Shown: positions 23,480 to 35,910 of the stretch, one piece after another
Layout of the letters: each line of letters opens with the position of its first letter
Numbering within the stretch: the first letter of the stretch is position 1
DNA from: a virus
Strand: one strand, 5' to 3'
Length of the DNA stretch: 64,000 nt
Virus record (IMG/VR): IMGVR_UViG_3300049489_000444
Span: 23,108-87,107 of that record
The notes under the pieces: generated by a model
The model's input: the letters and a program-made list of their open reading frames with translations, nothing else
Databases searched by the model: none
What the model was told of the DNA's origin: nothing
Translations under genes and position numbers: made by a program

Positions 23480-23794
23480 TTACGGCATATCACGCTCGTC
23501 AGCAGGCGCGGCCTGCTGATAGCCGCTACCCGCATTCAGGTGGACGTACAATCGCCGTTTGACCTCCCTGACAAGGTCAGTCCAACCACCATGGTATTTC
23601 GGGTCTTGTCTGATCGAATCAGACAGACGCACAACCACGTAGATCACCTCATCTAGGGTCGGGTCAATCTTTCCGCCATGCTGCGCATTGTATCGCGCTA
23701 CGAGATCAGCCAACTCCTTCGGCGCTCCGCTCCGTGTAGACGTACATGCATGCCTTGAGTTGCCTGAGGGTTGCGCCATGTTGGGTCTCATCAC
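23480..23794 (-). CDS. Hypothetical protein
   Basis: 104 aa ORF upstream of polA; start uncertain. Confidence 0.45.
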   Translation of the reverse strand: MMRPNMAQPSGNSRHACTSTRSGAPKELADLVARYNAQHGGKIDPTLDEVIYVVVRLSDSIRQDPKYHGGWTDLVREVKRRLYVHLNAGSGYQQAAPADERDMP

Positions 23795-24032
23795 GGACTC
23801 GTTTGATCATGAAGATCGTATCGGTCCGTCCAACGATCTCATAGAATTGCTGGTCAATTCTGTGGTAGAGGCGAGCCCCGACAACAAGGTCTGCGGTCTG
23901 AGGTCGTCTCAGTTCTTGCTCGATCTCTACGCCTTCTCTGGTGAGAGAACCAGACGCAGATGTCGTGACCTGTAGATCGATCGGGATACCGGAGGCTGTC
24001 TCGATCGATGGGATCGACTTTGCTCGTATCAT
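23706..24032 (-). CDS. Hypothetical protein
   Basis: 108 aa, ATGA-coupled to the upstream ORF. Confidence 0.45.
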   Translation of the reverse strand: MIRAKSIPSIETASGIPIDLQVTTSASGSLTREGVEIEQELRRPQTADLVVGARLYHRIDQQFYEIVGRTDTIFMIKRVRDETQHGATLRQLKACMYVYTERSAEGVG

Positions 24033-24298
24033 TGGGCGCCGGCTGGCCGGTTCAGGAATGTCGCGTAGTGCGTCGCGACTGGGCTCTGGATTGCCGCAAT
24101 GAATGGCCGGCAGTTGAAGCAGCGCTGACCTCGTGCCTCCCTTGGGCAGTGCATCTCTTCATGTCGGACCGCGATATAGGCACAAATCTCAACGAATTCG
24201 CGTTGCCGGACATCATCAATGGCCCAGACGGCAGGCCTGCCGATAGCGCTGATCATGTGGTGACTTGGGTTTGATTCCGTAAGCATGTTAGACCTCAC
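24029..24298 (-). CDS. Hypothetical Cys-containing protein
   Basis: 89 aa, HCPR...RCFNC. Confidence 0.45.
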   Translation of the reverse strand: MRSNMLTESNPSHHMISAIGRPAVWAIDDVRQREFVEICAYIAVRHEEMHCPREARGQRCFNCRPFIAAIQSPVATHYATFLNRPAGAQ

Positions 24299-24315
24299 CG
24301 GCTATTTACGCCACA

Positions 24316-24651
24316 TCACTCTGGGGTTTCATGTAGCCTGAGACAGATAGCCTCGATATCGAACCACTGTTCAGGAACATACATACCGTCCTGAAGGTTG
24401 CGGGTAAGATGCTTGATTTGCTTGAAATCCCAGTAGAATCGACCACTCCCGATCAAGCATTGACAGTACCGCTCTGTGCGTGGGATATGACCGCGCTGGC
24501 AGCGCGTTACCCAGTCGTTAAACCAAACGGTATTGTAGGTCCGTCTCGGTCCGAAACGCGGACGCAGCGCCTCGATGGTGGACTGCGCGGGAGTATGAGG
24601 GTCGTCTGGGTTTGCCGCCAGGACCGTTACAACCAGTAGCGCTGTAATCAT
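24316..24651 (-). CDS. Secreted small Cys-containing protein
   Basis: Signal-peptide-like MITALLVVTVLAA, C...YCQC...C pattern, AAGGAGG RBS. Confidence 0.65.
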   Translation of the reverse strand: MITALLVVTVLAANPDDPHTPAQSTIEALRPRFGPRRTYNTVWFNDWVTRCQRGHIPRTERYCQCLIGSGRFYWDFKQIKHLTRNLQDGMYVPEQWFDIEAICLRLHETPE

Positions 24652-24881
24652 GGTTCGACCTCCTTTGGTGGTTTGGCGATGACGACGTAGACGTCCATGC
24701 CGTCGTTTTCATCCCATTCACTCCAACGGACATCCAGCCCGGCCCGTTCCAGGCATTGGAGGAATTCGGACCATTCACGGTCGTCAACCGATAGGCTCTG
24801 ACGGATTTCGTCCGCCGGACTTGGAGTTGTCGGGTTGAGTGATGCCTGCCATCTTCCAGTGTAACGATCGAGGATAATCAT
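24648..24881 (-). CDS. Small acidic hypothetical protein
   Basis: 77 aa directly downstream of the vWA gene, ATGA-coupled to the next gene. Confidence 0.6.
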   Translation of the reverse strand: MIILDRYTGRWQASLNPTTPSPADEIRQSLSVDDREWSEFLQCLERAGLDVRWSEWDENDGMDVYVVIAKPPKEVEP

Positions 24882-24899
24882 CTCTTCTCTTCTTTCGGT

Positions 24900-26243
24900 T
24901 TATGCAGCGAACAACTTGGTGGCGAGATCGTCGTCGATCCCGTAGGTCTGTTCGATGGTCTCGACGGTGTCGCACCACGGGCTGAGGCACTCCGCATTGA
25001 CCCCGATGGCCATCCCAAAGGAGTTGACGCCAAGTGCCTTGGCCTGCTCACGCAGCGCGGCCGTGCGGTTCTGGTTGGATCCACCGTCGGTGATCATGAC
25101 GATGTCGGCCTTGGCCAATTGACCGGGGTTCTGCTGGATGATCTGCAGGGCACGCTCGTACGCGACGTCGATGTCAGTCCCGCCGTGGCACTCCACGAAC
25201 AGCGCGGATGCGTCCATCTTCTCGCCCTTCTTGGTGATGGCCTCGTGCATGATGCGGGTGTCGAATGAGACCACGGCGAACACGCGCCCATCACGAACGG
25301 CCAGATCACCCAACGCCAAAGCCACCGCGGTGGCCCAATCATTCGGGTCGCCCTTCATGCTGCCTGATTTGTCCAGGCACACCACCATCGGCCCTTTGCC
25401 TTTGGTCTCGGTCCCGCGCATCTCGTACTGCAGGACCGAGCGCTCCATCATTTGCCTGTGCAGGTCCAGCCGTGAGAGCGGGTGCATCAGCTTGGCCAGT
25501 TCCGTGGGCAGGAAGCGGGAGATGTCGTCACCGACGGTGATGTCAGCGATCTCATCAGCCCCGTGACGGACCTTCTGCTTCTGCTTGGTCAGGGCCATCT
25601 TGCGGAAGCGGCCAATCAACTGCACCAGCCGCTGCATGCGGGGCTTGGTCTTCAGGGCGTTGGCGATCTGCCGAGTGCGTTCCCCGGCGGCGGCCGCGTG
25701 TTCGCCGGGCTGGTCGCCGGGCTGCCAGCCGAACGCGAATTGATCCAGGGCAGCCTCAGCCTCAATGAGGCCCTCCACGGTCTCCTGTGCACACTGGACG
25801 GCCTTCCGGGTGAGCCGGCGCAGCCCGTCCTCGAACTTCTTGACCTCACCGGGATCCATGGACTTGGGCGGCGTCAGACCACCCTGCTGGGCGCGCTCTT
25901 CGTCCCGGAGGGCTGGACCCAGGTCGCCCATCAACTGCTCGACCGCCATACCGGCCATGGCGGCCCGTTGGTGCTCGGGGAGCGACCGGATTTGGTCCGC
26001 CATGCGTTGGAACGCCGGGAGGGCGTTGCAGGCGTCGTGGACGCCCTTGGCCCAACGGGTCAGCTTGGGGTCGGCCTTTTCGGCCGGCAGCGCCTCAACC
26101 TCGTCACCATTGGCGAGCCGATCAAAAAGCTCGTCCTCGAACTGGACCCGCTTGTGATCGAGCGAGTCGACCTGATCCAGACCGCGGGCAGCGCGGTGTT
26201 GGTAGATCGTCCAACGCGGCACATCGAGGGTGAGTCGCTTCAT
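24900..26243 (-). CDS. viaA: vWA-domain protein (ViaA-like partner of the MoxR ATPase)
   Basis: MIDAS motif CLDKSGSM, GGTD, ADIVMITDG; GDDISRFLPTEL upstream; GGAGG RBS before the ATG at 26243. Confidence 0.85.
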   Translation of the reverse strand: MKRLTLDVPRWTIYQHRAARGLDQVDSLDHKRVQFEDELFDRLANGDEVEALPAEKADPKLTRWAKGVHDACNALPAFQRMADQIRSLPEHQRAAMAGMAVEQLMGDLGPALRDEERAQQGGLTPPKSMDPGEVKKFEDGLRRLTRKAVQCAQETVEGLIEAEAALDQFAFGWQPGDQPGEHAAAAGERTRQIANALKTKPRMQRLVQLIGRFRKMALTKQKQKVRHGADEIADITVGDDISRFLPTELAKLMHPLSRLDLHRQMMERSVLQYEMRGTETKGKGPMVVCLDKSGSMKGDPNDWATAVALALGDLAVRDGRVFAVVSFDTRIMHEAITKKGEKMDASALFVECHGGTDIDVAYERALQIIQQNPGQLAKADIVMITDGGSNQNRTAALREQAKALGVNSFGMAIGVNAECLSPWCDTVETIEQTYGIDDDLATKLFAA

Positions 26244-26266
26244 GGGTGTTGCCTCCAGTGGGTCAA

Positions 26267-26295
26267 CGTATATCAGGATGATATACACATGTCAA
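26267..26295 (-). promoter_or_regulatory. Sigma70-type promoter P1 with palindromic operator
   Basis: TTGACA-17 nt-TATACG. The perfect inverted repeat GTATATCA-GGA-TGATATAC at 26268-26286 covers the spacer and -10. Confidence 0.8.
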
Positions 26296-26379
26296 GGGTA
26301 ATCTTCTTGGCCTGCCGACCTCCTAGGACGCCTCAGGATCGACGTTCCGTGCGTGACCATGCGCACCCCGGTTTGGGTC

Positions 26380-27525
26380 TCAGCGACCCAGCGGACGAGC
26401 GCCGAGGCCCATTCCGGCAGAGACTTGGCGGTTGAACTCAGCCCGGACCTCGCTGATCTCTTTGGCGCCATCCAGGGCCACGGCCTTGGTCCGCTTGCCG
26501 GCCTTCTGGGCCAGATCTTCAATGGACACCCTCATACGGTCCAGTTCGACCATGGCGGAGGCGGCCGCAGCAACGAACGCCTTGCGGTCCCCGCCCTTCA
26601 GGGCCTCAGTCTTCCGCGTCAGTTCGCGGGCCGCGTCGACGACTTCAGACACCTGTGACGAGACAGGGTCCGCCACCTTGCCGACGACGCGCGCCACCTT
26701 GGTGCGCTCCTTGGGCTCGCGCCACAGGGCGTCCACCAGACACAGCATGTCCTCGGCGGTGACCTCGGTCTCACCGGCCAGATAGGCGCTGGCCTTGGCC
26801 AGACGCAGGCACTTCTTGACGCGGCGGTCCGAGATGATGATGCCCTCGACGGCCAGTGCCTCCCTGATCTCGATCAGGGCGTCCACGGCGGCGTCCGTGA
26901 CCTTGACGGCCATGGCGGCCGCCTGAGAGGCGCGCAGGTCACCCATGGTCAGGCGGACCGTGCTGGTGGGCTCATCCGCCAGCAGCATCGTGCGGAGGTT
27001 GGACGTGCGAGACAGATAGGCCACGTCGAACCGCACCATGAAGCGGTCCCAAAGGGCTTCCAGTTCCTTGCCCTCGGGCATCTCGTTGGAGGCGCCGAAG
27101 AGGGACACCAGCGGCATCTTGGTGGGCGCCCCGTCATTGTGGAACAGGCGCTCGTTCATGGCCGTGAGCAACGAGTTGAGGATCGCGCTGTTTGACTTGA
27201 ACACCTCGTCGACAAACGCGAACTCAGCCTCCGGGAGCTTGCCGGTGGTCACGCGGGCGAAGCGGTCCTGCTCCAAGGCCTTCAGGCTGACCGGCCCGAA
27301 AAGCTCCTCGGGCGTGGAGAACCGCGTCATGAGGCGCTCGAAGTACACGCCGGAGAAGGCGGCCGCAATGGCCCGCACGAGGGCCGACTTGGCCGTTCCC
27401 GGAGGCCCCAGCATCAGGACATGCTCGCCGGCCAAGATGGCCGCCAGAGCGCCCTCGATGACATCCCGGCGCTCCGGGAACTGCGCGTTCAACTCGGTCT
27501 TGAGGGCGGCGAATGGCTGGGTCAT
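26380..27525 (-). CDS. ravA: MoxR-family AAA+ ATPase (RavA-like)
   Basis: GPPGTAKS Walker A, TRFSTPEELFGP, FVDEVFKSNSAILNSLL, GASNE, LWDRF, ISDRR; GGAG RBS before the ATG at 27525. Confidence 0.9.
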   Translation of the reverse strand: MTQPFAALKTELNAQFPERRDVIEGALAAILAGEHVLMLGPPGTAKSALVRAIAAAFSGVYFERLMTRFSTPEELFGPVSLKALEQDRFARVTTGKLPEAEFAFVDEVFKSNSAILNSLLTAMNERLFHNDGAPTKMPLVSLFGASNEMPEGKELEALWDRFMVRFDVAYLSRTSNLRTMLLADEPTSTVRLTMGDLRASQAAAMAVKVTDAAVDALIEIREALAVEGIIISDRRVKKCLRLAKASAYLAGETEVTAEDMLCLVDALWREPKERTKVARVVGKVADPVSSQVSEVVDAARELTRKTEALKGGDRKAFVAAAASAMVELDRMRVSIEDLAQKAGKRTKAVALDGAKEISEVRAEFNRQVSAGMGLGARPLGR

Positions 27526-27565
27526 GTGGTGTATCTCCGGTGGACGGGATGTCCAAGTAACGTGG

Positions 27566-27594
27566 AGCATACATGGAGTGTACCGATCTGTCAA
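27566..27594 (-). promoter_or_regulatory. Sigma70-type promoter P2
   Basis: TTGACA-17 nt-TATGCT upstream of the MoxR gene; no clear operator. Confidence 0.7.
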
Positions 27595-27602
27595 GCGATA
27601 TC

Positions 27603-27800
27603 TTAGTGCGCGAGATCCGGCTCATCTTTGATGGCGGTCTGGACCGCCTCCCCGCCTGATGCCTCGTTGATGGCCTCGAGGATCTCGGTATCCGAGAGCC
27701 CTTTCTCTCGCAAAAACGCCATCTTCTGCTGGAGCGTACCGGGACCGTCGGCCGTGTCTCGGAGGAACTTCACGGCTCGGGCGAGGCTAATGGTTCTCAT
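27603..27800 (-). CDS. 65-aa protein resembling the Pex14 N-terminal domain
   Basis: AVKFL-x10-QQKMAFLREKGLSDTEI matches the Pex14_N signature; GGAG RBS. Confidence 0.65.
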   Translation of the reverse strand: MRTISLARAVKFLRDTADGPGTLQQKMAFLREKGLSDTEILEAINEASGGEAVQTAIKDEPDLAH

Positions 27801-27866
27801 TGTAGTATCTCCATTGGTCTGCATGACGGGCGCGCAACCACAGGCCGCGCCCGGACATCGCCTCCG

Positions 27867-28811
27867 TCAGGCACGCTTTTGCGCCAGCAGTGTCTCGACG
27901 GACTGCACCATCTGGTTCAGTTGGGCGTCAAGGTCTTCGACGGTGCAGCCGAGGATCGAGCGGTACAGCGTGGCGCGCCCACGCAGGTCCTCGAACGTCG
28001 CCAGACGGCGGTCCAGGGTGCTGGGGCGGACCCCGTCAGGGTCCTCGCAGAACCCCGCGATTTCGCCACGCAGGGCGGTCAGTTCGGCCTCAATGGAGCC
28101 CGCGGCCGCCACCTGCAGGGCACGCTCGGCCTGCTCGGACCGACTCACCGGCAGGACGAAAACCTCAGACGAGCCGATTCCGGCGATTGCACCCTGCAGG
28201 GCGCGGACCTTGTCCGCGTTCGTGCGCGGCACCCAGTAGATGCCGCCGGTCTCGCGCAGCGTCACGCCGTTGGCGGCCTTCAAGCATTTGACGATCGTCG
28301 TCATGACGTCACGACTCGGGTGGGTCGTGAGGTACCGCTGGTATTCCCTCACGATCAGCCCGGCCGTCTCGTTGACCGGGTTGTCAGTCGAGATTACCGG
28401 GTTGGCCTTGTCGGCCTTGTCCAGCATGACCAGCGCCTTCTGCGTTGAGAAGTAGTTCCCGGACGCGTCGTGGCCCTCCTCGACGACCGCGTAGATCAGC
28501 GCGTTGGCGCTGTCGACGGTGGGGCGCACCAGAGTCCCCTGGCGGTTGGCGCCAAGGTTGGTTGATGCCGCCCGCACCGCGAGCCGCAGCGCCTTGTCGG
28601 GCGTCTGCGCCTCCGGGAGCATCTTGGGGTCCAGCCCCGCGCTGACCCAACGCTGCTCCAGCACGGAGCGCTGGACGTCGGCGTCAGCCAACGCCCAATA
28701 GACGATATCGCCAAGGTGCTCGCCATTTGAGGTGGCGAGCACGTTGCGCAGGTCCGTAACGGACCGGACCTGCGTGGAGGAGGAGATGGCGGCGGCGGCG
28801 GTGTCGGTCAT
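27867..28811 (-). CDS. DUF6744/DUF3150-like protein associated with AAA-vWA modules
   Basis: LGDIVYWAL...W..AGL...LP, LRETGGIYWVP, RATLYRSILG. Family recalled from memory, not searched. Confidence 0.6.
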   Translation of the reverse strand: MTDTAAAAISSSTQVRSVTDLRNVLATSNGEHLGDIVYWALADADVQRSVLEQRWVSAGLDPKMLPEAQTPDKALRLAVRAASTNLGANRQGTLVRPTVDSANALIYAVVEEGHDASGNYFSTQKALVMLDKADKANPVISTDNPVNETAGLIVREYQRYLTTHPSRDVMTTIVKCLKAANGVTLRETGGIYWVPRTNADKVRALQGAIAGIGSSEVFVLPVSRSEQAERALQVAAAGSIEAELTALRGEIAGFCEDPDGVRPSTLDRRLATFEDLRGRATLYRSILGCTVEDLDAQLNQMVQSVETLLAQKRA

Positions 28812-28855
28812 TGGGTTTTCTCCGTGGGCTCAGTGGCCCGGTCCTTCGTTGTGGT

Positions 28856-28887
28856 AGGCATATATCATCGTGATATATGCCTGTCAA
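28856..28887 (-). promoter_or_regulatory. Sigma70-type promoter P3 with palindromic operator
   Basis: TTGACA-17 nt-TATATG. Perfect inverted repeat with 12-bp arms, AGGCATATATCA-TCG-TGATATATGCCT, at 28856-28882. Confidence 0.8.
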
Positions 28888-28913
28888 GTGAAATCGGCTG
28901 ACAGATCAGCCGA
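28886..28913 (-). terminator. Possible intrinsic terminator
   Basis: 8-bp hairpin TCGGCTGA-4nt-TCAGCCGA at the end of the upstream ORF, followed only by a weak TTTCACTT tail. Confidence 0.35.
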
Positions 28914-29403
28914 CAGAGATCACGGGGATCACCGGCTCGCCCTCAGCATCCTGGGATGCCACCTCATGGGGGCGGAACGCGTCACCCAGGACACCGCCAC
29001 TGACGACGGTGACATCCCGGAGGCGGACGGCACCCTTGACCGGGGTCTTGGGGAGGGTCTTGAGTTCCGCGTTGAAGCGCGCGGTGGCCTCTTTGACCCC
29101 GTTGACTTCCATGAGGGCCTCTTCGGCCTTCTCGTCCATGGCGGCGGCGTCACGCATGGCGCCGAGCAGGATCTCAATGGCGAGATCCCGCTGAAGCCCG
29201 CTGCGCTGGATGAACAGGCCGATGGCGGCCTTGGTCAGGCCGCGCGAGGTCGGGGTCTTCTCTGTATCGACGCCGCGGCAGCACACGCCGGACACCCGGA
29301 CCACGAAATCAAACGGGTGGTTTCCGGGGGCCACGTCGGATTCCGGCAGCTTGCTGCCGACCTTAGAGAGAACCAGCGACTCGATGGCTGAGAGGTTGAT
29401 CAT
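28906..29403 (-). CDS. Hypothetical protein, first gene of the leftward arm
   Basis: 165 aa, AAGGAG RBS, GC-rich codon usage like its neighbours. Confidence 0.75.
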   Translation of the reverse strand: MINLSAIESLVLSKVGSKLPESDVAPGNHPFDFVVRVSGVCCRGVDTEKTPTSRGLTKAAIGLFIQRSGLQRDLAIEILLGAMRDAAAMDEKAEEALMEVNGVKEATARFNAELKTLPKTPVKGAVRLRDVTVVSGGVLGDAFRPHEVASQDAEGEPVIPVISVG

Positions 29404-29465
29404 TGGGTGCTCCTTGGCGGGGTGCGGCCCGCGTCCGTTTTTCATTGATGCAGTTCGTAAGGTGG

Positions 29466-29494
29466 ATAATACATGACCTACGCCCGGCTGTCAA
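29466..29494 (-). promoter_or_regulatory. Sigma70-type promoter P4
   Basis: TTGACA-17 nt-TATTAT, close to consensus. Confidence 0.8.
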
Positions 29495-29551
29495 CTGTTT
29501 TCTGCCTAGACAGATCAACGCAGATCTATTGAGGTTTTTCGTTGAAACCGC

Positions 29552-29580
29552 TTGCGTCATGTATATCCTGATGCTATACA
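29552..29580 (+). promoter_or_regulatory. Divergent sigma70-type promoter P5 with operator variant
   Basis: TTGCGT-17 nt-TATACA. GTATATCC-TGA-TGCTATAC at 29561-29579 matches the P1 operator at 7/8 positions in each arm. Confidence 0.7.
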
Positions 29581-29619
29581 CGGGTAAGTGGTTGTTTTTC
29601 CCGGACAACAGAGGCCAAC

Positions 29620-30765
29620 ATGTCGCGCACACATCATACTGTGGAACTGACCATCCCCTATAGGACCAAACCGGACCTGCGGACCCTACGGGGACCGATC
29701 AACAAGGCGGTCAAATCGAGTGTAGACCGAGACCGCTGGCACTACGACGGTCGGCGCATCGAAATCTCCGACCTCGACGGAAGTCTAAAACTGCGCCTCC
29801 GTTTCGAGCCGACCGCGCGGGCATCGGTCGCCGACCGCGCCAAGCTCGCCCGGAGTGTCCGCCGGGCGGTCGCATCCATCGCCATAGACCAGCCTGGATC
29901 GACGGAACCTCAACCGACGGAACCTCAACCGACGGAACCTCAACCGACGGAACCTCAACCGACGGAATTGATGCCATCACCAGAGCCAGAGCCAGAGCCA
30001 GCGCCAGATATGTCACCGCCGCCGATAAACGTCGAGCGTGGCACCAATTTCGATCATATCTATGACCGTAGCGCTCAGGTCTCAATCCTCCTGTCGGCTA
30101 TCCGTGCTGCCGTCGAGTCCGATTTCCAAGTGCGATTCCATACGATTCTATTTGGCCCGCCAGGATGCGGCAAAACGGAAATTTTGCGGTCAGCTATCGC
30201 GATGCTCGGTCCATCACACGTCCTGCTCCTAGACGGACCTAGCACCACCAAAGCAGGTGCCGAGCAACTCCTGATGGGTGTGAAACGCATTCAACCGTTT
30301 GTCCTCATCGAGGAAATCGAGAAGATGCACCCAGCGCATATGCAATGGTTACTGGGGCTACTGGACGAGCGCGGCGAGGTTCGACGCACCAACGCACGGG
30401 ACGGACACGTGCAGCGCGACGCCAGGATGCTGTGCATCGCGACGGTGAACGACATGCTGAGGTTTCGTGCTCTGATGTTCGGAGCGCTAAGCAGTCGTTT
30501 CTCACATGAGATTTATTGTCCGCGCCCGGACACTGATGTCCTTAGCAAGATCGCACACCGCGAAGTCGCCCGTATCGGCGGCAACCCGTTTTGGGTTAAC
30601 GCCGCGGTCAATTATTGCGTGCACGTCGAGGGCACGTACGACCCACGCCGCGTTGTCAGCGTCTGTCTCAGCGGTCGTGATGCGCTGCTGGATGGGACCT
30701 ACCAGAGAGCCCTCCTGCATAACCGCATGCTGCAGCAACAAGCAGCCAACAACGAGAAGAAGTGA
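29620..30765 (+). CDS. AAA+ ATPase (RuvB/RarA-like core) with N-terminal domain and Pro/Glu linker
   Basis: FDHIY, HTILFGPPGCGKT Walker A, VLIEEIEK Walker B, IATVN sensor, LSSRF Arg finger. Confidence 0.8.
   Translation: MSRTHHTVELTIPYRTKPDLRTLRGPINKAVKSSVDRDRWHYDGRRIEISDLDGSLKLRLRFEPTARASVADRAKLARSVRRAVASIAIDQPGSTEPQPTEPQPTEPQPTEPQPTELMPSPEPEPEPAPDMSPPPINVERGTNFDHIYDRSAQVSILLSAIRAAVESDFQVRFHTILFGPPGCGKTEILRSAIAMLGPSHVLLLDGPSTTKAGAEQLLMGVKRIQPFVLIEEIEKMHPAHMQWLLGLLDERGEVRRTNARDGHVQRDARMLCIATVNDMLRFRALMFGALSSRFSHEIYCPRPDTDVLSKIAHREVARIGGNPFWVNAAVNYCVHVEGTYDPRRVVSVCLSGRDALLDGTYQRALLHNRMLQQQAANNEKK
29900..29967 (+). repeat. 15-bp coding tandem repeat (TEPQP)
   Basis: CGACGGAACCTCAAC in 4 perfect copies plus a partial one, followed by CCAGAG x3. 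Confidence 0.95.
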
Positions 30766-30772
30766 GGATACC

Positions 30773-31066
30773 ATGGCCAAGAAACGATCCGACGCCGCAA
30801 CAAAGCATCCAGCACTTCGTCATATCGAGGACCACGGTATCACCCGCGCTGAGGCTGCTGAGATGCTGGGCATCCCAGACAAACAGGCCTACCTGAATCT
30901 TGTCCTTGATCGATGGCGTGGTACATCCAAGGTGTACGCGCGTTTGTTTCATGAGGTGTTTGGCATCCCGTATGAGGAGTTATTTGACATCCCAGTAAGG
31001 TTGGACGCCAAAACATTCAAGCGACAACAGAACAAACAGAAGCAACAGAAACGAGGTCAAAAATGA
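30773..31066 (+). CDS. Cro/CI-type HTH transcriptional regulator
   Basis: 97 aa: HGITRAEAAEMLGI...YLNLV...FHEVFGIPYEELF with a basic tail; GAGGA RBS. Confidence 0.7.
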   Translation: MAKKRSDAATKHPALRHIEDHGITRAEAAEMLGIPDKQAYLNLVLDRWRGTSKVYARLFHEVFGIPYEELFDIPVRLDAKTFKRQQNKQKQQKRGQK

Positions 31067-31770
31067 AACCGGCCGATATCCTAGATCAAGCAGCCAACGC
31101 GCTCGAGGAACAGGCCCATGTGGCAAACTTCGGCTACGTCGAGGCGTCCAGCCTATCCCGATTGCTGAACATGGTCGGAACGCCGGAGAACAAGACTGAC
31201 CCGACGACCAACAAGAAGATGATCGATTTCAATGTTGGCCGGGCTTTCGCGATCCTGACGGCGTGGAAGGACGTTCTTGACGACAAGCCTCTGAGCGAGA
31301 AGCAGAACTGGGCTCGTAATCGGTTGCTCCTTAATGAGTTGAACGCCAAGAAGATGGGCGCCTACAAGCTCATCGGTTTCTTCCAGAACCCGCCAGAGGG
31401 CATGACCTACGACGAGGCGCGGGACCAAGGCAAGCTGCTGCCGGCATCCCGCGAAGAATCGTTCTTCGTGACCAAGCCGAAGGATATGGAGTTTGATGAG
31501 TTTGAAAACATCATTGGCGGTCTGGCTAACAAGTACGACCAATGGGCCTACCTGATCAGCAACGGCAAGGAGGTCTTCGAGGTCAGCAAGGCGGCCAGGA
31601 AATCGCTCGGTAACCGCTTGGTTATGCCGAAGATCCAACAGGCATACTCACGGATGCGCGGTTATGGAGACAAACCGTTCGTGTTCGCTGGTGTTGTGAC
31701 ACCTGACTCTATCGGGCAGATGCGGTATTTCCAGCATATCGGCCTGAATTGGATCCCGAGGATCAAATGA
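31063..31770 (+). CDS. SAM-lyase (T3 SAMase)/DUF3293-like protein, paralog 1
   Basis: Motifs in order: FAILTAWK, QNWARNRLL, LIGFFQ, REESFFV, KYDQWAYL. Confidence 0.55.
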   Translation: MKPADILDQAANALEEQAHVANFGYVEASSLSRLLNMVGTPENKTDPTTNKKMIDFNVGRAFAILTAWKDVLDDKPLSEKQNWARNRLLLNELNAKKMGAYKLIGFFQNPPEGMTYDEARDQGKLLPASREESFFVTKPKDMEFDEFENIIGGLANKYDQWAYLISNGKEVFEVSKAARKSLGNRLVMPKIQQAYSRMRGYGDKPFVFAGVVTPDSIGQMRYFQHIGLNWIPRIK

Positions 31771-32807
31771 GCAGACTCTACAGGTCAGCCCAAGCGCTGC
31801 TGAATCTCGTCGCGGGGGCCATGAAGTTCCGCGATTTCCGCTCACACGGAGGTACATCGAAGATGTGGATCGACCCGAAGAACAGGCCGATCCCTCTTGA
31901 TGGTATGCACTACGAATGGCTGCGTGAGAATGCACCGTTCGTCAGGAAAGCCTACAACCTCCCAGACATGCCGGACTGGGGTTACGACGACGAGGGTAAG
32001 GCCCGCCTGTGGGCTCTCAGCAATGGATTCACAAGAGTCAACTTCAAAAACAATTGGGTGACATTCGAGACCAACGAACGCTTCTGGACCAAGAAACGCC
32101 AGGACGTCATTTCCATGCTTGTCGCCGAGAACTCTGATGACATCGATAATATCGTCGTCAACGTCCTCAACGACTCAGGAAAGTTGATCAAGGACGGCCG
32201 GGCCGACGTCAGCGGCCTAGATGAGGCGGTCGCCAAAGTCGAATCGATTCCGGTTATCCCCGCGAAACAAACAAGATTGATCGCCGAGGTTCTCAGGAGG
32301 GTCCGTGTTGAGGCGTCGAGCCTGACTCGCATCCTGCGCCTCATCGGTAAGCCAGACCAAGACGGTATCGAGGTCCTACGTCCGTTCGGGATTGTCACGG
32401 CGTTCCAGACAGGCGTTTCTTTGGAGGTGAACAACCAGCGCCTAAACCAGATGAGCGAGAAGCTCGGCCGGTCAGGCGTTAAGACGTATCGCCTGCAGGG
32501 CAACTGGTTAGAGCAGGGACTATCGCCCGATGAGGCCAAGAAACCAGTCAAGGTCCGAGAAGACGCGTTGTTCTGTGTAGTCCAATCAGATGACGATATC
32601 GACTTTGAGGCGTTCTCGCAGGCCATCATCCGTCAGGCGGACCGATTCAATCAGGCGGCTGTCATCCTGAGTGATGGAGCGAACATTTGGCTGCGCTTCA
32701 AGGACGGCCATACAAAGGATTTCGGAGACACCGCGGACGTCGCTACACTCCAACAGGCCTATCAGCAGATGCGTGCCCAGCAAGAACACACGTTCACGTT
32801 CGAGTGA
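31767..32807 (+). CDS. Two-domain protein with C-terminal SAM-lyase-like domain, paralog 2
   Basis: FGIVTAFQ, EVNNQRLNQM, LQGNWLE, REDALF, RFNQAAVIL; clearly paralogous to 31063..31770. Confidence 0.55.
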   Translation: MSRLYRSAQALLNLVAGAMKFRDFRSHGGTSKMWIDPKNRPIPLDGMHYEWLRENAPFVRKAYNLPDMPDWGYDDEGKARLWALSNGFTRVNFKNNWVTFETNERFWTKKRQDVISMLVAENSDDIDNIVVNVLNDSGKLIKDGRADVSGLDEAVAKVESIPVIPAKQTRLIAEVLRRVRVEASSLTRILRLIGKPDQDGIEVLRPFGIVTAFQTGVSLEVNNQRLNQMSEKLGRSGVKTYRLQGNWLEQGLSPDEAKKPVKVREDALFCVVQSDDDIDFEAFSQAIIRQADRFNQAAVILSDGANIWLRFKDGHTKDFGDTADVATLQQAYQQMRAQQEHTFTFE

Positions 32808-32811
32808 CGAG

Positions 32812-33573
32812 ATGCACGATACTGCCGCCCTCCTCGACCGTGTCGCGATGGTGATCGAGGCTGATGATGATGATAATGATCCCATCACACTCGACACACC
32901 TGACGGTATCCTGCACGCCGTTCAGTTGTGTGATGATGGGTACCTCAGCGATGGCGAGTGCGCACAGCTTGATGCGGCGCTAAAAACCTATCCGCCGCTG
33001 AAGGTTCGCGCTCTCGACAGAACCGTTGATGATGTCCGTTTCGTCGGAGACAAAATTGTTGAAGGCGATCGCGACACATTCACAGCCTACACGCCCGAGG
33101 AATGGATGAGGTCCACTACAGCGGAGAACATCATCGAGGAGATCGCCGGGAAGATCGAGGAGCGCATCGATCGCGATTACCACGAATCTCCAGGCAAGCT
33201 CTGGCACGCCACCGACGCAGAAAACATCGAATCAATTATGCGTGACGGCCTAAGGGCCGAAAATCAATCACGTGGGCTGACCAACAGGTCGGTCGGGATG
33301 GCAATCTTTACGACCGACGACCGCAGCCTCGTCAGCGATGCCTACGGTGACACCGTGTTGGAGATCGACCTCTCCGGGATGCAGCGTGACGGCATCAGGT
33401 GGGCAGTCTCCCAGGAACCATCTGTCTCCCTGTACGAGGCCGAGAGTGCCTTGGCACATATGCTCGATCTTGATGACTACTCACCAGACAATACCAGCGA
33501 TGGGGCCGATGACCCGTCGACCATCATCCTGTACGTCGCGGTGGTCCCGCCGAAGTACCTACGGGTCGTGTAA
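32812..33573 (+). CDS. ADP-ribosyltransferase-fold protein (Tpt1/KptA C-terminal-like)
   Basis: LWHATDAENIESIMRDGL, AIFTT, VLEID and terminal VPPKYL. Confidence 0.65.
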   Translation: MHDTAALLDRVAMVIEADDDDNDPITLDTPDGILHAVQLCDDGYLSDGECAQLDAALKTYPPLKVRALDRTVDDVRFVGDKIVEGDRDTFTAYTPEEWMRSTTAENIIEEIAGKIEERIDRDYHESPGKLWHATDAENIESIMRDGLRAENQSRGLTNRSVGMAIFTTDDRSLVSDAYGDTVLEIDLSGMQRDGIRWAVSQEPSVSLYEAESALAHMLDLDDYSPDNTSDGADDPSTIILYVAVVPPKYLRVV

Positions 33574-33596
33574 ACAGGCCAAGGTGAGGCCGATCA

Positions 33597-34121
33597 ATGG
33601 ATGAACCGCAGCCGGGCTGGTGGGTCATCATCGAAACGAACTCGTACGCTGGTAATTTCGAGCGAACTATGGGTGCTTGGTGCACCGGGGCCTACGGCGA
33701 GACGCACGGAAAATTCGAGTCTGCCGACTGCTTATCCGAATTAGAGAACACCGGATGGGCTCATATCCCAGACAATGTCGGGTACTGCTGTGGCGGCGAA
33801 CGCGCAATGCGGTGGGCCTTACCAAAGAACCAGAAATCCACAGACGGACTCGACTCGATCTACACAGGAGTCGCGATCCCGTTCAACAAACGACCCAGCC
33901 GCAGTGATGTTCGATTCATGTTGTGGCGTGCGGCCGATTATGCAGAAAAAGTCCGCTCAGGTTACTTCTCCGGTAAGCGCACCATATCTTGTTACGCCCA
34001 GGAAACCCTGCAGGTGACCGGTATACAGGTCAGGCATTTACGTCTAAGTGAGACCATTACAGATCGGATCAAGGTACATGGCGCTGCAGCTAAGTCATCA
34101 AAGAAGAATCCACGCTCCTGA
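33597..34121 (+). CDS. Phage hypothetical protein
   Basis: 174 aa, IIETNSYAGNFER..AWCTG pattern; last gene of the + strand operon. Confidence 0.65.
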   Translation: MDEPQPGWWVIIETNSYAGNFERTMGAWCTGAYGETHGKFESADCLSELENTGWAHIPDNVGYCCGGERAMRWALPKNQKSTDGLDSIYTGVAIPFNKRPSRSDVRFMLWRAADYAEKVRSGYFSGKRTISCYAQETLQVTGIQVRHLRLSETITDRIKVHGAAAKSSKKNPRS

Positions 34122-34156: not shown

Positions 34157-34369
34157 TCAGGAATCTTCTCTGGATAACGCCTCCAGCGCCTCCTCCAATA
34201 AATCCCGCTTCATCGAGGATCTGTTGATTTGGAATTGAAGTTCTTTGAGTACAGCTTCCTTCGTAACACCTTGACGCGCGTGCCACGACCAGTGGCCCTG
34301 CTTCCGCATGACGACAACCTCTGGAGCAACGTCCACCATCACATCGGCCAAGTCCACTGTCGCGCTCAT
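34157..34369 (-). CDS. Hypothetical protein
   Basis: 70 aa with an AGGAG upstream. Confidence 0.55.
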   Translation of the reverse strand: MSATVDLADVMVDVAPEVVVMRKQGHWSWHARQGVTKEAVLKELQFQINRSSMKRDLLEEALEALSREDS

Positions 34370-34427
34370 TCATCTCGCCCTTCTCCTAGCCCATACTGAC
34401 CGGTCTCATGCAAATAATAGATCGATC

Positions 34428-34910
34428 TCAGTCTTTGTTCTCAATAGTCTTCTTCAGACTAGCGGCGGCGCGTTCGATTGCGTCCGCGGGCGGTTGGATG
34501 GTCACGATGATACCTGTCGGCTTCTGATAGTGCCGCATGAGCGAATCTTTCAGACTCAGACTTGCAATCCAATACGGTCCCGGATGCTTTGGACGCACGT
34601 AAAGGATACCGTCCTGCAGTTCCTCCTCGTAGGTTCCGGGGAACAGCCGAGTAGGCTCATGGGCCTGCAGGGGATACCGTGGATGGAGGATCAGGACCCC
34701 GCGGTTGGTTCCAGGGAACTGGTCTTTGACGACGTCAACAAGCCAGAACTCGTCATGCTTGGGGAACTCGAGATGCCCCTGCATGGACTGCGACCACGCG
34801 CGGTCAACGATCGCGACCTTCCCGAATGTCCGACTCAGAATGGCGTTCTGTTTGTCGGCTTTCAGGTTGAACTGGAACTTCGCGACCGCCGTACAGACCC
34901 CATCACGCAA
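34428..34910 (-). CDS. Hypothetical protein
   Basis: 3' part of ORF 34428..35090; a TTG start next to the upstream stop avoids a 180-bp overlap. Confidence 0.55.
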   Translation of the reverse strand: MRDGVCTAVAKFQFNLKADKQNAILSRTFGKVAIVDRAWSQSMQGHLEFPKHDEFWLVDVVKDQFPGTNRGVLILHPRYPLQAHEPTRLFPGTYEEELQDGILYVRPKHPGPYWIASLSLKDSLMRHYQKPTGIIVTIQPPADAIERAAASLKKTIENKD

Positions 34911-34911
34911 A

Positions 34912-35910
34912 TTAGCCCGCGAAGGGCTGACGGTATGTGGAGTGTCCGACACTAGCGACAAGTGTCCGCTTGTTGGCTGCGGTTTGTATGGTTGCTTGGA
35001 CACGGAATCTCTTTCCAGGCGTGAATGTGCCATTGGTAATCCTAAGTCGCTTGCGGCGAAGTTGCTGTCCTGATGAGGATTGAAGGACATAGTCTTGGGT
35101 GAAATCGCTGGTCAGCATGCTGGGCAGTACCGTTCCTGAGCCCCAGGTTGCGGAGACATTCCCGTCGGAATCCTCGATGTCCAACGTGATAATCTGACCG
35201 GTCTCTTGCACGTAATCGAACGTGATATTGCGCGGCTGTTCACGTCCGACGATGAACGCCCAGCGAAACCGGTCAATCGTTGGTGTGTTACCGTTGTTGA
35301 CGATCTGCATGATGTGGCCGAACGATGTATGATCGACCGTCTCGACCACAGGAGCCAGTCCGGCCTCGGTGTGTTTGTAGATCATCGACGTGAATGGCGG
35401 CGTCAAGAACGTACCATCAGCGGGACTCGAGAAGGCCTCAATTCTGGCTTTCGGGGCCGGAACAATCATCGTATCTGCGAGCCCGACTCCGCCACCCGGA
35501 TACAGCACGTAACCGAGCACAATACCATCATTGATGTTCTGATTCTGCAGGAGACCGTAATCTAGAGTCAGCGTTGCGGCGTTTCCGCCGAACACGTCAG
35601 AATCCGTGTGCCTGTATACGACCGTATAGTTGGCGGCGGCACTCGTGATAGGAACGACAAGCTGTTTGGGTTCGTCCTCGTGCAGGAGGACTCCTGCCCG
35701 CATCGTGCCTTGTTGGGTGGTACGTGGACTATCAAGAGATATCCAAACAGGCTGAATGACGATCCTGTCAGGCTGTGTTGGCGGTGTTACGGCCGACACG
35801 CCAATCTCACCGCCACTCAGGACGGTCTTGCCTGTCAGGCCGCTGAACATCTCTTTAAATGTGCTCGCTGTGGCAAAGATGCCGAAGTCGAAGTAACGGT
35901 GCTGAGTCAC
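34912..35910 (-). CDS. Putative virion structural protein
   Basis: 332 aa, beta-rich, in the baseplate/fibre operon. Confidence 0.55.
   Translation of the reverse strand: MTQHRYFDFGIFATASTFKEMFSGLTGKTVLSGGEIGVSAVTPPTQPDRIVIQPVWISLDSPRTTQQGTMRAGVLLHEDEPKQLVVPITSAAANYTVVYRHTDSDVFGGNAATLTLDYGLLQNQNINDGIVLGYVLYPGGGVGLADTMIVPAPKARIEAFSSPADGTFLTPPFTSMIYKHTEAGLAPVVETVDHTSFGHIMQIVNNGNTPTIDRFRWAFIVGREQPRNITFDYVQETGQIITLDIEDSDGNVSATWGSGTVLPSMLTSDFTQDYVLQSSSGQQLRRKRLRITNGTFTPGKRFRVQATIQTAANKRTLVASVGHSTYRQPFAG

Follow-up and report, generated by a model that had tools for sequence, protein, structure and literature searches.

The window analyzed here is a stretch of 64,000 nucleotides (nt) that corresponds to bases 23108-87107 of an 87,107-base virus contig of IMG/VR (IMGVR_UViG_3300049489_000444), and the positions given below are those of the window unless stated otherwise. 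Because CheckV puts its completeness at only 26%, the contig is a fragment of the genome of a large uncultured phage. Our subject is the 10 kb located between positions 24029 and 34121 (the island), which has genes for gyrase A, gyrase B and a DNA polymerase to its left and large, structural-looking open reading frames (ORFs) without Pfam match to its right. The left arm of the island (minus strand) contains a trio of genes that code for a DUF6744 protein, a MoxR-family AAA+ ATPase and an adaptor with a von Willebrand factor A (vWA) domain, and the right arm (plus strand) is an operon that includes two paralogs of the S-adenosylmethionine (SAM) lyase family. An initial annotation of this DNA had read the whole 10 kb as a single undescribed host-takeover or anti-defence system. 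We favor, with a probability of roughly 60%, a composite early region of the phage, in which two functionally separate modules flank a divergent control region. The trio consists of the following genes:

27867..28811, minus strand: DUF6744 protein, 314 amino acids (aa), Pfam PF20529 with an expect value (E) of 5e-20
26380..27525, minus strand: MoxR-family AAA+ ATPase, 381 aa from MTQPF, bpMoxR E 5e-56, AAA_5 E 3.5e-24, AAA_lid_8 E 4.5e-18
24900..26243, minus strand: vWA adaptor, 447 aa from MKRL, VWA_2 E 1.5e-9 and VWA_CoxE E 1.6e-7 (both above the cut-offs), phrog_24053 E 1.5e-38

The DUF6744 protein matches its Pfam profile over the full length, as residues 14-311 cover profile positions 3-311 of 314 (72.1 bits, with 27 as the gathering score). 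Its AlphaFold model (predicted local distance difference test, pLDDT, 91.2) has an alpha/beta region followed by a three-helix bundle. The same fold was found in BFVD in four uncharacterized proteins of tailed viruses (E ~1e-15, TM-score 0.64-0.72), one of them from an archaeal virus, the Haloarcula vallismortis tailed virus 1. When the model was compared by VIA-align, the C-terminal bundle alone was matched, by BAG domains at Z 11, which is the usual range for helical bundles. The translation of the MoxR gene has intact P-loop (GPPGTAKS) and Walker B (FVDE) motifs. The metal ion-dependent adhesion site (MIDAS) of vWA domains is made up of the motifs DxSxS, T and D, which appear in our adaptor as DKSGS, GGTD and ITDG. 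The motif is also described in PMC7159879, where known MoxR-vWA pairs are presented as remodeling a client that is bound at the MIDAS site.

The two last proteins of the trio had been called RavA-like and ViaA-like, something that is correct as a resemblance. As in the RavA-ViaA pair of Escherichia coli, the gene of a MoxR-family AAA+ protein is found by that of a vWA protein with a MIDAS, and RavA (E 1e-64) and ViaA (E 3.5e-23) were the best NCBIfam matches. Orthology, however, did not stand, as both scores fall far below the equivalog cut-offs (219.3 bits vs 681 for MoxR and 82.6 vs 500 for vWA). Besides, the pair is carried by phages and mobile elements and always with DUF6744, whereas RavA-ViaA occurs without it.

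A different parentage is suggested by the MoxR-vWA ternary conflict systems (Kaur et al., 2020; PMC7159879), which would make of the trio a phage-borne defence or exclusion system. They have the same three-gene logic, in which MoxR and vWA are joined by a third conserved component. The Pfam model bpMoxR, which our ATPase matches, was built from them, and the P-loop of the ATPase has the GXXXTAKS form noted for two of the classes in that work. The closest copies of the trio are, in addition, found in Myxococcota, a multicellular group. We nevertheless hold this origin to be very improbable indeed. The third component, DUF6744, is none of VMAP, iSTAND, FtsH or beta-propeller/TPR protein, and the vWA protein has no C-terminal propeller because it ends some 30 residues past the vWA domain (the domain match ends at residue 430 of the 462-residue ORF scanned). 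No effector domain was detected in the three proteins by Pfam, PADLOC or NCBIfam, in which diverged domains could be missed, and PADLOC gave only weak matches (mad8, IetA, GajA, TRIP13 and DarT). Compared with the four classes as described there, the trio is, by its domain composition, not a member of any of them.

A way to approach the role of the trio is to look at where else it appears and in which company. We searched 60 related loci, that is, 44 (31 from genomes and 13 viral) plus 16 from metagenomes. DUF6744 has 22 relatives in a large protein collection, three of which (49-55% identical) are on contigs of 71-276 kb, and the 31 genome loci, found in a set with one genome per species, belong nearly all to Myxococcota. 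MoxR adjoins DUF6744 in 24 of these 31 and vWA is also present in 21, the seven loci without MoxR being contig ends or partial matches. The identity to the Myxococcota copies is 58-64% for MoxR, 42-47% for DUF6744 and 38-46% for vWA. Among the metagenomic loci, MoxR is by DUF6744 in 11/16 and vWA too in 6/16. A scan of IMG/VR with the window DUF6744 as single protein gave no relatives; distant DUF6744 genes (23-30% identity) are found in 13 IMG/VR contigs, and 12 of them carry an AAA+/vWA pair (the 13th contig is cut 780 nt from the gene). The pair is MoxR and vWA of the window type in 2/13 and another AAA+ (AAA_5/AAA_3) with a DUF2201_N/DUF2201 "metallopeptidase-vWA" in 10/13.

The trio is also present in a cultured isolate, the Moorella phage MTATph1 (176.6 kb), whose three genes are located near a ribonucleotide reductase. 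Specifically, CDS0119 is the DUF6744 homolog (hhalign probability 98.7%, E 1.5e-16), CDS0115 (annotated as "ATPase") is a MoxR 43.6% identical to ours and CDS0114 is the vWA protein (35% identity, E 3e-47). A tblastn search of the GenBank phages with DUF6744 gave no match, which reflects the sensitivity of that search, since hhalign did find the distant homolog of MTATph1. The gp71 of Bacillus phage 0305phi8-36 was also considered as a DUF6744 homolog and discarded (probability 0.7%). The most informative relative for gene order is an 11-kb metagenomic contig (L062) in which DUF6744, MoxR and vWA (41, 54.5 and 45% identical to those of the window) come first. Behind them are two unrelated genes, a pair of small genes that the window also has (37 and 50%), the DNA polymerase (49-53%) and the two genes that follow it. 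Because this contig is syntenic with the window, the trio has long been beside this replication block.

Along these lines, the same-strand neighbors in the 31 genome loci, mostly of Myxococcota, include Rad52-like (12), PD-(D/E)XK (12), RadC (9) and ParB_N (6) genes, and occasionally those of SSB, the beta-clamp and an SNF2 helicase; ParB_N and ResIII helicase genes are found in the viral loci. Judging from these neighbors, the company of the trio is a replication/recombination or entry set of mobile elements and not a virion module. The connection with DNA metabolism is by neighborhood only and the gene calls in the high-GC loci are crude, both of which speak against pressing it too far. None of the right-arm genes accompanies any of these arrangements, and DUF6744-MoxR-vWA can be considered, as far as gene content goes, a self-standing conserved trio that recurs without any right-arm gene. 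It is widespread but unstudied, and unpublished as far as literature searches reach: we found no paper for "DUF6744" or "MTATph1", and none that has DUF2201 and MoxR together among the matches listed in a search that also included the term phage.

Virion assembly is a role that could be borrowed from other viruses that encode a MoxR-vWA pair. It has been shown for the Acidianus two-tailed virus and proposed for the MoxR/metallopeptidase-vWA of the group 2.2 jumbo phages, in the account given in PMC7824862. The metallopeptidase-vWA form of the latter (DUF2201_N/DUF2201) is exactly the type that accompanies DUF6744 in 10 of the 13 viral loci, and in the window the island sits between the replication and the structural blocks. 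The vWA protein of the window, on the contrary, has no DUF2201_N match and no HExxH motif, its context is one of replication with early-type promoters, and no DUF6744 partner is mentioned in passages of PMC7824862 on those pairs. Furthermore, the sigma70-type promoters described below are unlike anything upstream of the structural genes of the contig, and the neighbors that can be named are replication/recombination genes (the related loci were not screened for capsid or tail genes). We thus regard a virion-assembly machine as distinctly unlikely.

The right arm is organized in a different way and comprises these genes:

29620..30765, plus strand: AAA+ ATPase, 381 aa, MCM/AAA_5-like, AAA_5 E 4e-8, AAA E 7.4e-8
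30773..31066, plus strand: helix-turn-helix (HTH) protein, 97 aa, sub-threshold HTH matches, GAGGA before the ATG
31063..31770, plus strand: SAM-lyase-family protein 1 (g235), 235 aa, paralog of the next gene, assigned by family profile and fold
31767..32807, plus strand: SAM-lyase-family protein 2, 346 aa (g352 as scanned), N-terminal half without family match and C-terminal lyase-like domain
32812..33573, plus strand: candidate protein of ADP-ribosyltransferase (ART) fold, 253 aa, acidic N-terminal region, sub-threshold matches from four models
33597..34121, plus strand: 174-aa protein, last gene of the operon, phrog_23621 E 1.3e-10 over residues 9-49 only, no Pfam or PDB match

Four of these genes, from HTH to ART-like, are linked by ATGA overlaps or 5-nt gaps, with flanking gaps of 7 and 23 nt, and because of these overlaps and short distances the right arm is one six-gene operon. 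It had been described as the only plus-strand operon, which agrees with a crude gene call of the strands in the window but fails for the contig, the first 15 kb of which are plus-strand genes. The genes named in the initial annotation are all there, with the profile matches of the ART-like and HTH proteins below the cut-offs. Homologs of the AAA+, HTH, g235, g352, ART-like and 174-aa genes were found in none of the 60 related loci (0/44 and 0/16).

Phage SAM lyases are trimers that cleave SAM to methylthioadenosine (MTA) and homoserine lactone. The presence of two such genes in the operon, claimed from the start, is supported by profile and fold. The C-terminal half of g352 shares 27% identity with g235 along 194 residues (E 2e-15) and falls barely short of the Pfam family PF23780 (S-AdoMet_lyase; E 2.8e-6, 27.8 bits vs a cut-off of 28). 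A search with the family profile collected 768 representatives at E 0.001 or better; PF23780 is matched by 83 of 94 aligned members of the family (best E 1.3e-18), and against the PDB the only match of the profile below E 1 was the T3 SAM lyase (7ock, E 0.0013). Searches of IMG/VR with the SAM-lyase alignment (A2) gave no relatives, and that of the PDB with the g352 sequence nothing meaningful. When the model of g235 (pLDDT 91.5) was searched with Foldseek, SAM lyases ranked first as a group, with probabilities of 0.95-0.99. By VIA-align it superimposes on the T3 SAM lyase chains 8bb1_E (Z 9.5, root-mean-square deviation 3.6 Å, 121 residues) and 7ock_L (Z 9.0, 3.9 Å, 124 residues) and on Svi3-3 (6znb, Z 6.4; 6zm9, Z 5.7), the best unrelated chain being at Z 5.6.

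Gly56, Glu69 and Gln104 of Svi3-3 are reported to be conserved in active SAMases (PMC7877911). In the profile match to the T3 SAMase, the conserved G and E of this enzyme correspond to G105 and E131 of g235, and Q160, nearly invariant in the family, was placed against Gln104 by motif order only. Several observations weaken the assignment: g235 has no direct Pfam match, its Foldseek E-values to SAM lyases are just 0.01-0.09, and the position of the Svi3-3 Tyr58, which makes a cation-pi contact with the sulfonium, is taken by F107 in g235, while g352 and at least 90% of the family have W there. In Svi3-3 itself, the change Y58F is reported to reduce activity only fivefold (PMC7877911). Compared to the T3 SAMase, Svi3-3 and the phage SAM-AMP lyase, with which they share the PF23780 family, the PII-like ferredoxin fold and the aligned Gly and Glu, the window proteins are larger (235 and 346 aa vs ~150), have an N-terminal extension and an insert between the Gly and Glu motifs, carry F or W for Tyr58 and are tandem paralogs. 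Taken together, profile and modeled fold indicate that g235 and g352 belong to the SAM-lyase family. These lyases are counter-defence enzymes in the accounts of PMC7877911 and PMC12255297. The latter describes that SAM-AMP, a signal of type III CRISPR, is cleaved by a phage enzyme of the same fold, for which reason SAM and SAM-AMP are both candidate substrates of g235 and g352. The ~170 N-terminal residues of the second protein (31767-32270) have no family match. Other members of the family are fused into proteins of 1496-1665 aa, so that the lyase domain is often a module of larger proteins.

What holds the two arms together is found in their promoters. The left arm starts with one more gene, g165, and the control elements are the following:

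28906..29403, minus strand: g165, 165 aa, no family match, GGAG 7 nt before the ATG, GC at third codon positions (GC3) 0.83
26267..26295, minus strand: promoter of vWA, TTGACA-17-TATACG, TG at the extended -10, palindrome at 26269-26285
27566..27594, minus strand: promoter of MoxR, TTGACAG-N-CATGTATGCT, without palindrome
28859..28887, minus strand: promoter of DUF6744, TTGACA-17-TATATG with TG, palindrome at 28861-28877
29466..29494, minus strand: promoter of g165, TTGACA-17-TATTAT (11/12), without palindrome
29542..29580, plus strand: right-operon promoter, TTGAAA-16-TATCCT or TTGCGT-17-TATACA, imperfect palindrome (2 mismatches) at 29562-29578

Corrected gene starts are used for MoxR (27525), vWA (26243), g165 (29403), HTH (30773), g352 (31767) and the gene of the ART-like protein (32812). 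With a strict rule (perfect TTGACA, spacer of 16-18 nt and a -10 hexamer with at least 4/6 matches and A at position 2) the whole 87 kb contain only five sites, four of which, on the minus strand at 29494, 28887, 27594 and 26295, lie within 3.2 kb and precede g165, DUF6744, MoxR and vWA. Markov simulations (n=300) gave a mean of 1.9 strict sites per contig and never (0/300) three or more on one strand within 3.5 kb. A looser scan was not enriched by count (4 found vs 3.4 expected), and terminator-like sites were fewer than expected (5 vs 8.0). The plus-strand promoter before the AAA+ gene is weaker than the other four. The five sigma70-type promoters announced earlier are thus present, three of them with TATATCA-N3-TGATATA.

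As promoters of this kind are otherwise limited to a single site of the contig, early expression by the host polymerase is a reasonable prediction. In Pfam scans of nine large window proteins and of the eight ORFs of the 5' end of the contig, no RNA polymerase gene was matched. The single other promoter, the only other strong sigma70-type one of the contig, lies at contig positions 20420-20449 on the minus strand (window position approximately -2658) and reads TTGACAG-N-CATGTATGGT. It has TTGACAG...CATGTAT..T(C)CAC in common with the g165 and MoxR promoters, and an ATG ~10 nt past the -10, so that its mRNA may be leaderless or nearly so.

The palindrome is perfect at the vWA and DUF6744 promoters, and no further copies with up to three mismatches were found in window or contig. 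In all three promoters it begins 4 nt past a hexamer (TTGACA or TTGCGT) that reads in the direction of the downstream gene, with the downstream half forming the extended -10 (TGnTATA) and the upstream half occupying the spacer. A shuffle test was circular, because the pattern had been derived from the very copies tested. An independent, phylogenetic test is provided by a 1.7-kb metagenomic contig (L054) that has homologs of g165 (66% identical) and DUF6744 (69%). The orthologous intergenic site reads TTGACAG ATG TATATCA TCT TGATATA, so that the -35 and both half-sites are kept perfectly while the bases of the 4-nt and 3-nt spacers differ from those of the window, and it is the only match with up to two mismatches in 804 kb of related loci. 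Because of this perfect copy at an orthologous promoter, the palindrome is probably a real operator, and the shared operator that had been postulated is to this extent conserved. Its presence on three promoters supports a co-regulation of both arms. The expectation that gene set and operator would co-occur in relatives was borne out for the operator in L054 and not for the rest, as the right-arm genes are absent from the 60 loci.

The opposite view is that the palindrome is a by-product of promoter structure, an extended -10 (TGATATA) next to an AT-rich spacer. Not all the evidence is on the side of an operator. The half-site TGATATA does double as extended -10; the -10 hexamers of the three operator promoters have no final T (TATACG, TATATG and TATACA); two of the five island promoters carry no palindrome; and L062 has the trio without it. 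Moreover, the full 27-nt pattern of promoter and operator is found in eight unrelated low-GC contigs of IMG/VR, as ordinary strong TGATATAAT or TGATATACT promoters, and the predicted early expression by the host polymerase is drawn from matches to the promoter consensus. These eight contigs have no protein similarity to the window, and the pattern was rejected as a marker of relatives. The by-product explanation seems to us quite unlikely all the same. Promoter function does not involve the upstream half TATATCA. This half is nevertheless the same in three of the four aligned copies (the two perfect ones of the window and that of L054) and one base off at the promoter of the AAA+ gene, whereas the bases between the half-sites vary, and the surrounding DNA has 60-67% GC.

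As to the protein that would bind the operator, the 97-aa HTH protein of the right operon is a tentative candidate, to which we concede somewhat less than even chances. Aca-type HTH repressors control anti-CRISPR and other anti-defence operons, and the resemblance is appealing: a small HTH gene shares its operon with candidate counter-defence genes, and an inverted repeat (29562-29578) spans the -10 of the promoter. It departs from that scheme in that the repeat is also on two promoters of a different module and in that the HTH protein, without a nameable homolog, is only a candidate binder. Against this role also count that the matches to HTH_23 (E 4.7e-4, 20.3 bits vs 24.6), Xre-like-HTH (E 0.009) and HTH_28 (E 0.056) concern one 30-residue stretch and are all below the cut-offs, and that HTH protein and palindrome are linked by location only.

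With these data, the idea of a single system, in which all the parts of the 10 kb act together in host takeover or anti-defence, can be evaluated. In its favor are the operator common to both arms, the counter-defence role of SAM lyases cited above, and the close variants in two other sequencing runs: short contigs that match parts of both arms at 94-99% identity (27/30 bins of the stretch covered by those of run X2 and 14/30 by those of run X3, the uncovered bins being uninformative), from which it follows that close variants keep both arms. However, right-arm homologs near the trio are lacking in all 60 related loci, and the trio is alone in most of them; it is also alone in MTATph1, as in Myxococcota genomes and other phages. 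The arms also differ in GC3, which is 0.83-0.87 in g165, DUF6744, MoxR and vWA vs 0.55-0.74 in 19 other genes measured in the window. Finally, common regulation is not the same as one machine. A single system is thus very unlikely, and the earlier reading holds only in part, as the stretch is better described as a composite of a trio module and a separate SAM-lyase operon joined by regulation.

The high GC3 of these four genes suggests a high-GC source or a special codon selection. In the first case, which GC3 favors, the trio may have been acquired recently from Myxococcota. In the MoxR tree, the copies of the window and of L062 fall outside a clade that groups 26 rows from Myxococcota and metagenomes (support 99/95); this tree has no root, and the branch of L062 is long.

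For a composite early region, the following sequence of events can be proposed. The sigma70-type promoters would drive the genes, and the three that carry the 7-3-7 palindrome over spacer and -10 would probably be occupied by a dimeric repressor, with the HTH protein of the right operon as best candidate, in which case this operon would be self-limiting. If the trio works like RavA-ViaA and the other MoxR-vWA pairs, the MoxR ring would spend ATP on remodeling a protein or complex bound to the vWA protein through its MIDAS, and DUF6744 could be a fixed adaptor or the partner on the substrate side. Against this scheme counts that the model of the latter had no Foldseek match in the PDB at E 0.001 or better and its N-terminal alpha/beta part no counterpart (whole-model searches). 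Since the company of the trio here and elsewhere is one of replication/recombination genes, we propose DNA-bound proteins as its target, during the establishment or replication of the element, rather than virion assembly. For the SAM-lyase paralogs, in turn, the most likely substrate would be SAM or a signal derived from it, and its cleavage would weaken those defences of the host that depend on SAM. The data show the gene families, that the trio is conserved, the family and fold of the SAM lyases, and the promoter and operator sequences together with their conservation, whereas we infer in this scheme the timing, the polymerase used, the operator-binding protein and all biochemical activities.

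ParB_N, SSB and RadC genes are common among the early-entry genes of conjugative elements. Their company, together with the early-type promoters and the vicinity of the SAM-lyase operon, would also fit an anti-defence device that dismantles or blocks a host immune complex. There is a precedent in the coliphage Bas54, in which a MoxR ATPase gene was needed, according to the HIDEN-SEQ work (PMC13716836), to overcome the predicted defence system DS-28, a genetically shown anti-defence role for a phage MoxR. The Bas54 protein, however, was not among the 31 phage records that the window MoxR matched by tblastn at E 1e-5 or better, for which reason it is at best a distant relative, and PADLOC gave for the trio only the weak mad8 match. 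We consider an anti-defence trio possible, if unlikely. A broader reading, speculative and as a whole unlikely, would see in the trio a universal "establishment" machine of mobile DNA, which strips or remodels host proteins bound to the incoming genome (nucleoid proteins, clamp-associated proteins or immune sensors), is made at once from strong host-type promoters and is then shut off by the repressor together with the SAM-destroying operon. If this were true, there would be a new functional class of MoxR chaperones across bacterial phages, plasmids and, by fold, archaeal tailed viruses.

MoxR-vWA pairs are common and few have a known client. A trio with a fixed third partner that is found again and again, on genomic islands and in phages whose hosts differ widely, and that in MTATph1 is annotated just as "ATPase" and hypothetical proteins, therefore offers a tractable entry to the biology of mobile elements. 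To this the present locus adds individually promoted genes and a phylogenetically footprinted operator as a handle on regulation. The neighboring operon, with two diverged genes of the SAM-lyase family, widens a counter-defence family of 768 representatives. More generally, what looks like one tidy island can consist of two modules that are unrelated except for their control.

The remaining genes of the left arm and its border are small:

27603..27824, minus strand: Pex14_N-like protein, 73 aa, three-helix, Pfam Pex14_N E 3.4e-9
24029..24881, minus strand: three small ORFs (89, 111 and 77 aa) that follow vWA, with GC3 values (0.58-0.64) as elsewhere in the phage
23480..24032, minus strand: two overlapping small genes, 104 aa (23480-23794) and 108 aa (23706-24032), between the island and the DNA polymerase

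The g165 protein had no match in Pfam, PHROGs, PADLOC, NCBIfam or PDB, and its homolog in L054 is also upstream of DUF6744. A GC-rich hairpin with a T-run on the plus strand (29417-29446) is found in its 5' leader, between promoter and start codon. It may act as a terminator for antisense or leftward-originating plus-strand transcripts, or else give the leader a structure. The Pex14_N match (36.6 bits vs a gathering score of 23.2; residues 10-54 on profile positions 2-46 of 46) is a likeness to peroxin 14 in the profile only. The gene, with partly raised GC3 (0.72), had no tblastn match in any related locus and is absent from L062, where the gap between DUF6744 and MoxR is just 116 nt, and it appears to be a variable filler between these two genes. 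A Cys-rich, zinc-ribbon-like small ORF takes its place after DUF6744 in L054 (L054:1441-1703), and MTATph1 has three tiny ORFs in the same slot, which thus seems to hold variable small genes. The three ORFs downstream of vWA, with no Pfam or PHROG match and no tblastn match in related loci, are either lineage-specific or not genes. The 104- and 108-aa genes have homologs in L062 (50 and 37% identity) in the same order between vWA and the polymerase, and the 108-aa one had no Pfam or PHROG match.

The AAA+ ATPase that opens the right operon has as nearest Atlas cluster one that is 96% viral. Within its gene (29893-29967) there are four and a half copies of a 15-nt repeat that encodes PQPTE. The contigs of run X1, the probable source, break there at 29929/29938, and depth from other organisms accumulates at this point, so that the copy number in the record may be uncertain. 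The ART-like protein was matched below the cut-offs by PARP (E 2.3e-4, 21.2 bits vs 26.7), PTS_2-RNA (E 3.9e-4, 21.0 vs 26), DarT of PADLOC (E 0.0036) and the NCBIfam RNA 2'-phosphotransferase (E 7e-4, 19.4 bits vs 239). These matches share one region, and the structural leads in the Atlas are weak (TM-score 0.33-0.43). It has two relatives only, and HxT, RGLTNRS, YGD and QEP are invariant in the three homologs. Searches of the PDB with the sequences of the HTH, g165, 174-aa and ART-like proteins gave nothing meaningful. At the convergent end of the operon two long ORFs overlap on opposite strands (34308-34955, plus, and 34428-35090, minus); the latter, the one of the pair that was scanned, has no Pfam match.

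Regarding the phage itself, the 10 kb had no near match in GenBank phages by megablast. The DNA polymerase does not exceed 28.6% identity to its counterparts in jumbo phages (for example PaBG), and it had no close relative in a single-protein scan of IMG/VR. Gyrase A and gyrase B were the only Pfam matches among the nine large window proteins. The contig starts with a gene (L072:40-4668) for a 1542-aa polyvalent protein that has two GNAT acetyltransferase regions, ART-PolyVal and a PcfJ-like domain, followed by that of a 572-aa protein (L072:4665-6383) that combines pentapeptide repeats with a PcfJ-like domain. Large multi-domain proteins of this type are characteristic of phages and conjugative elements, and the two are, therefore, further counter-defence candidates on the contig.

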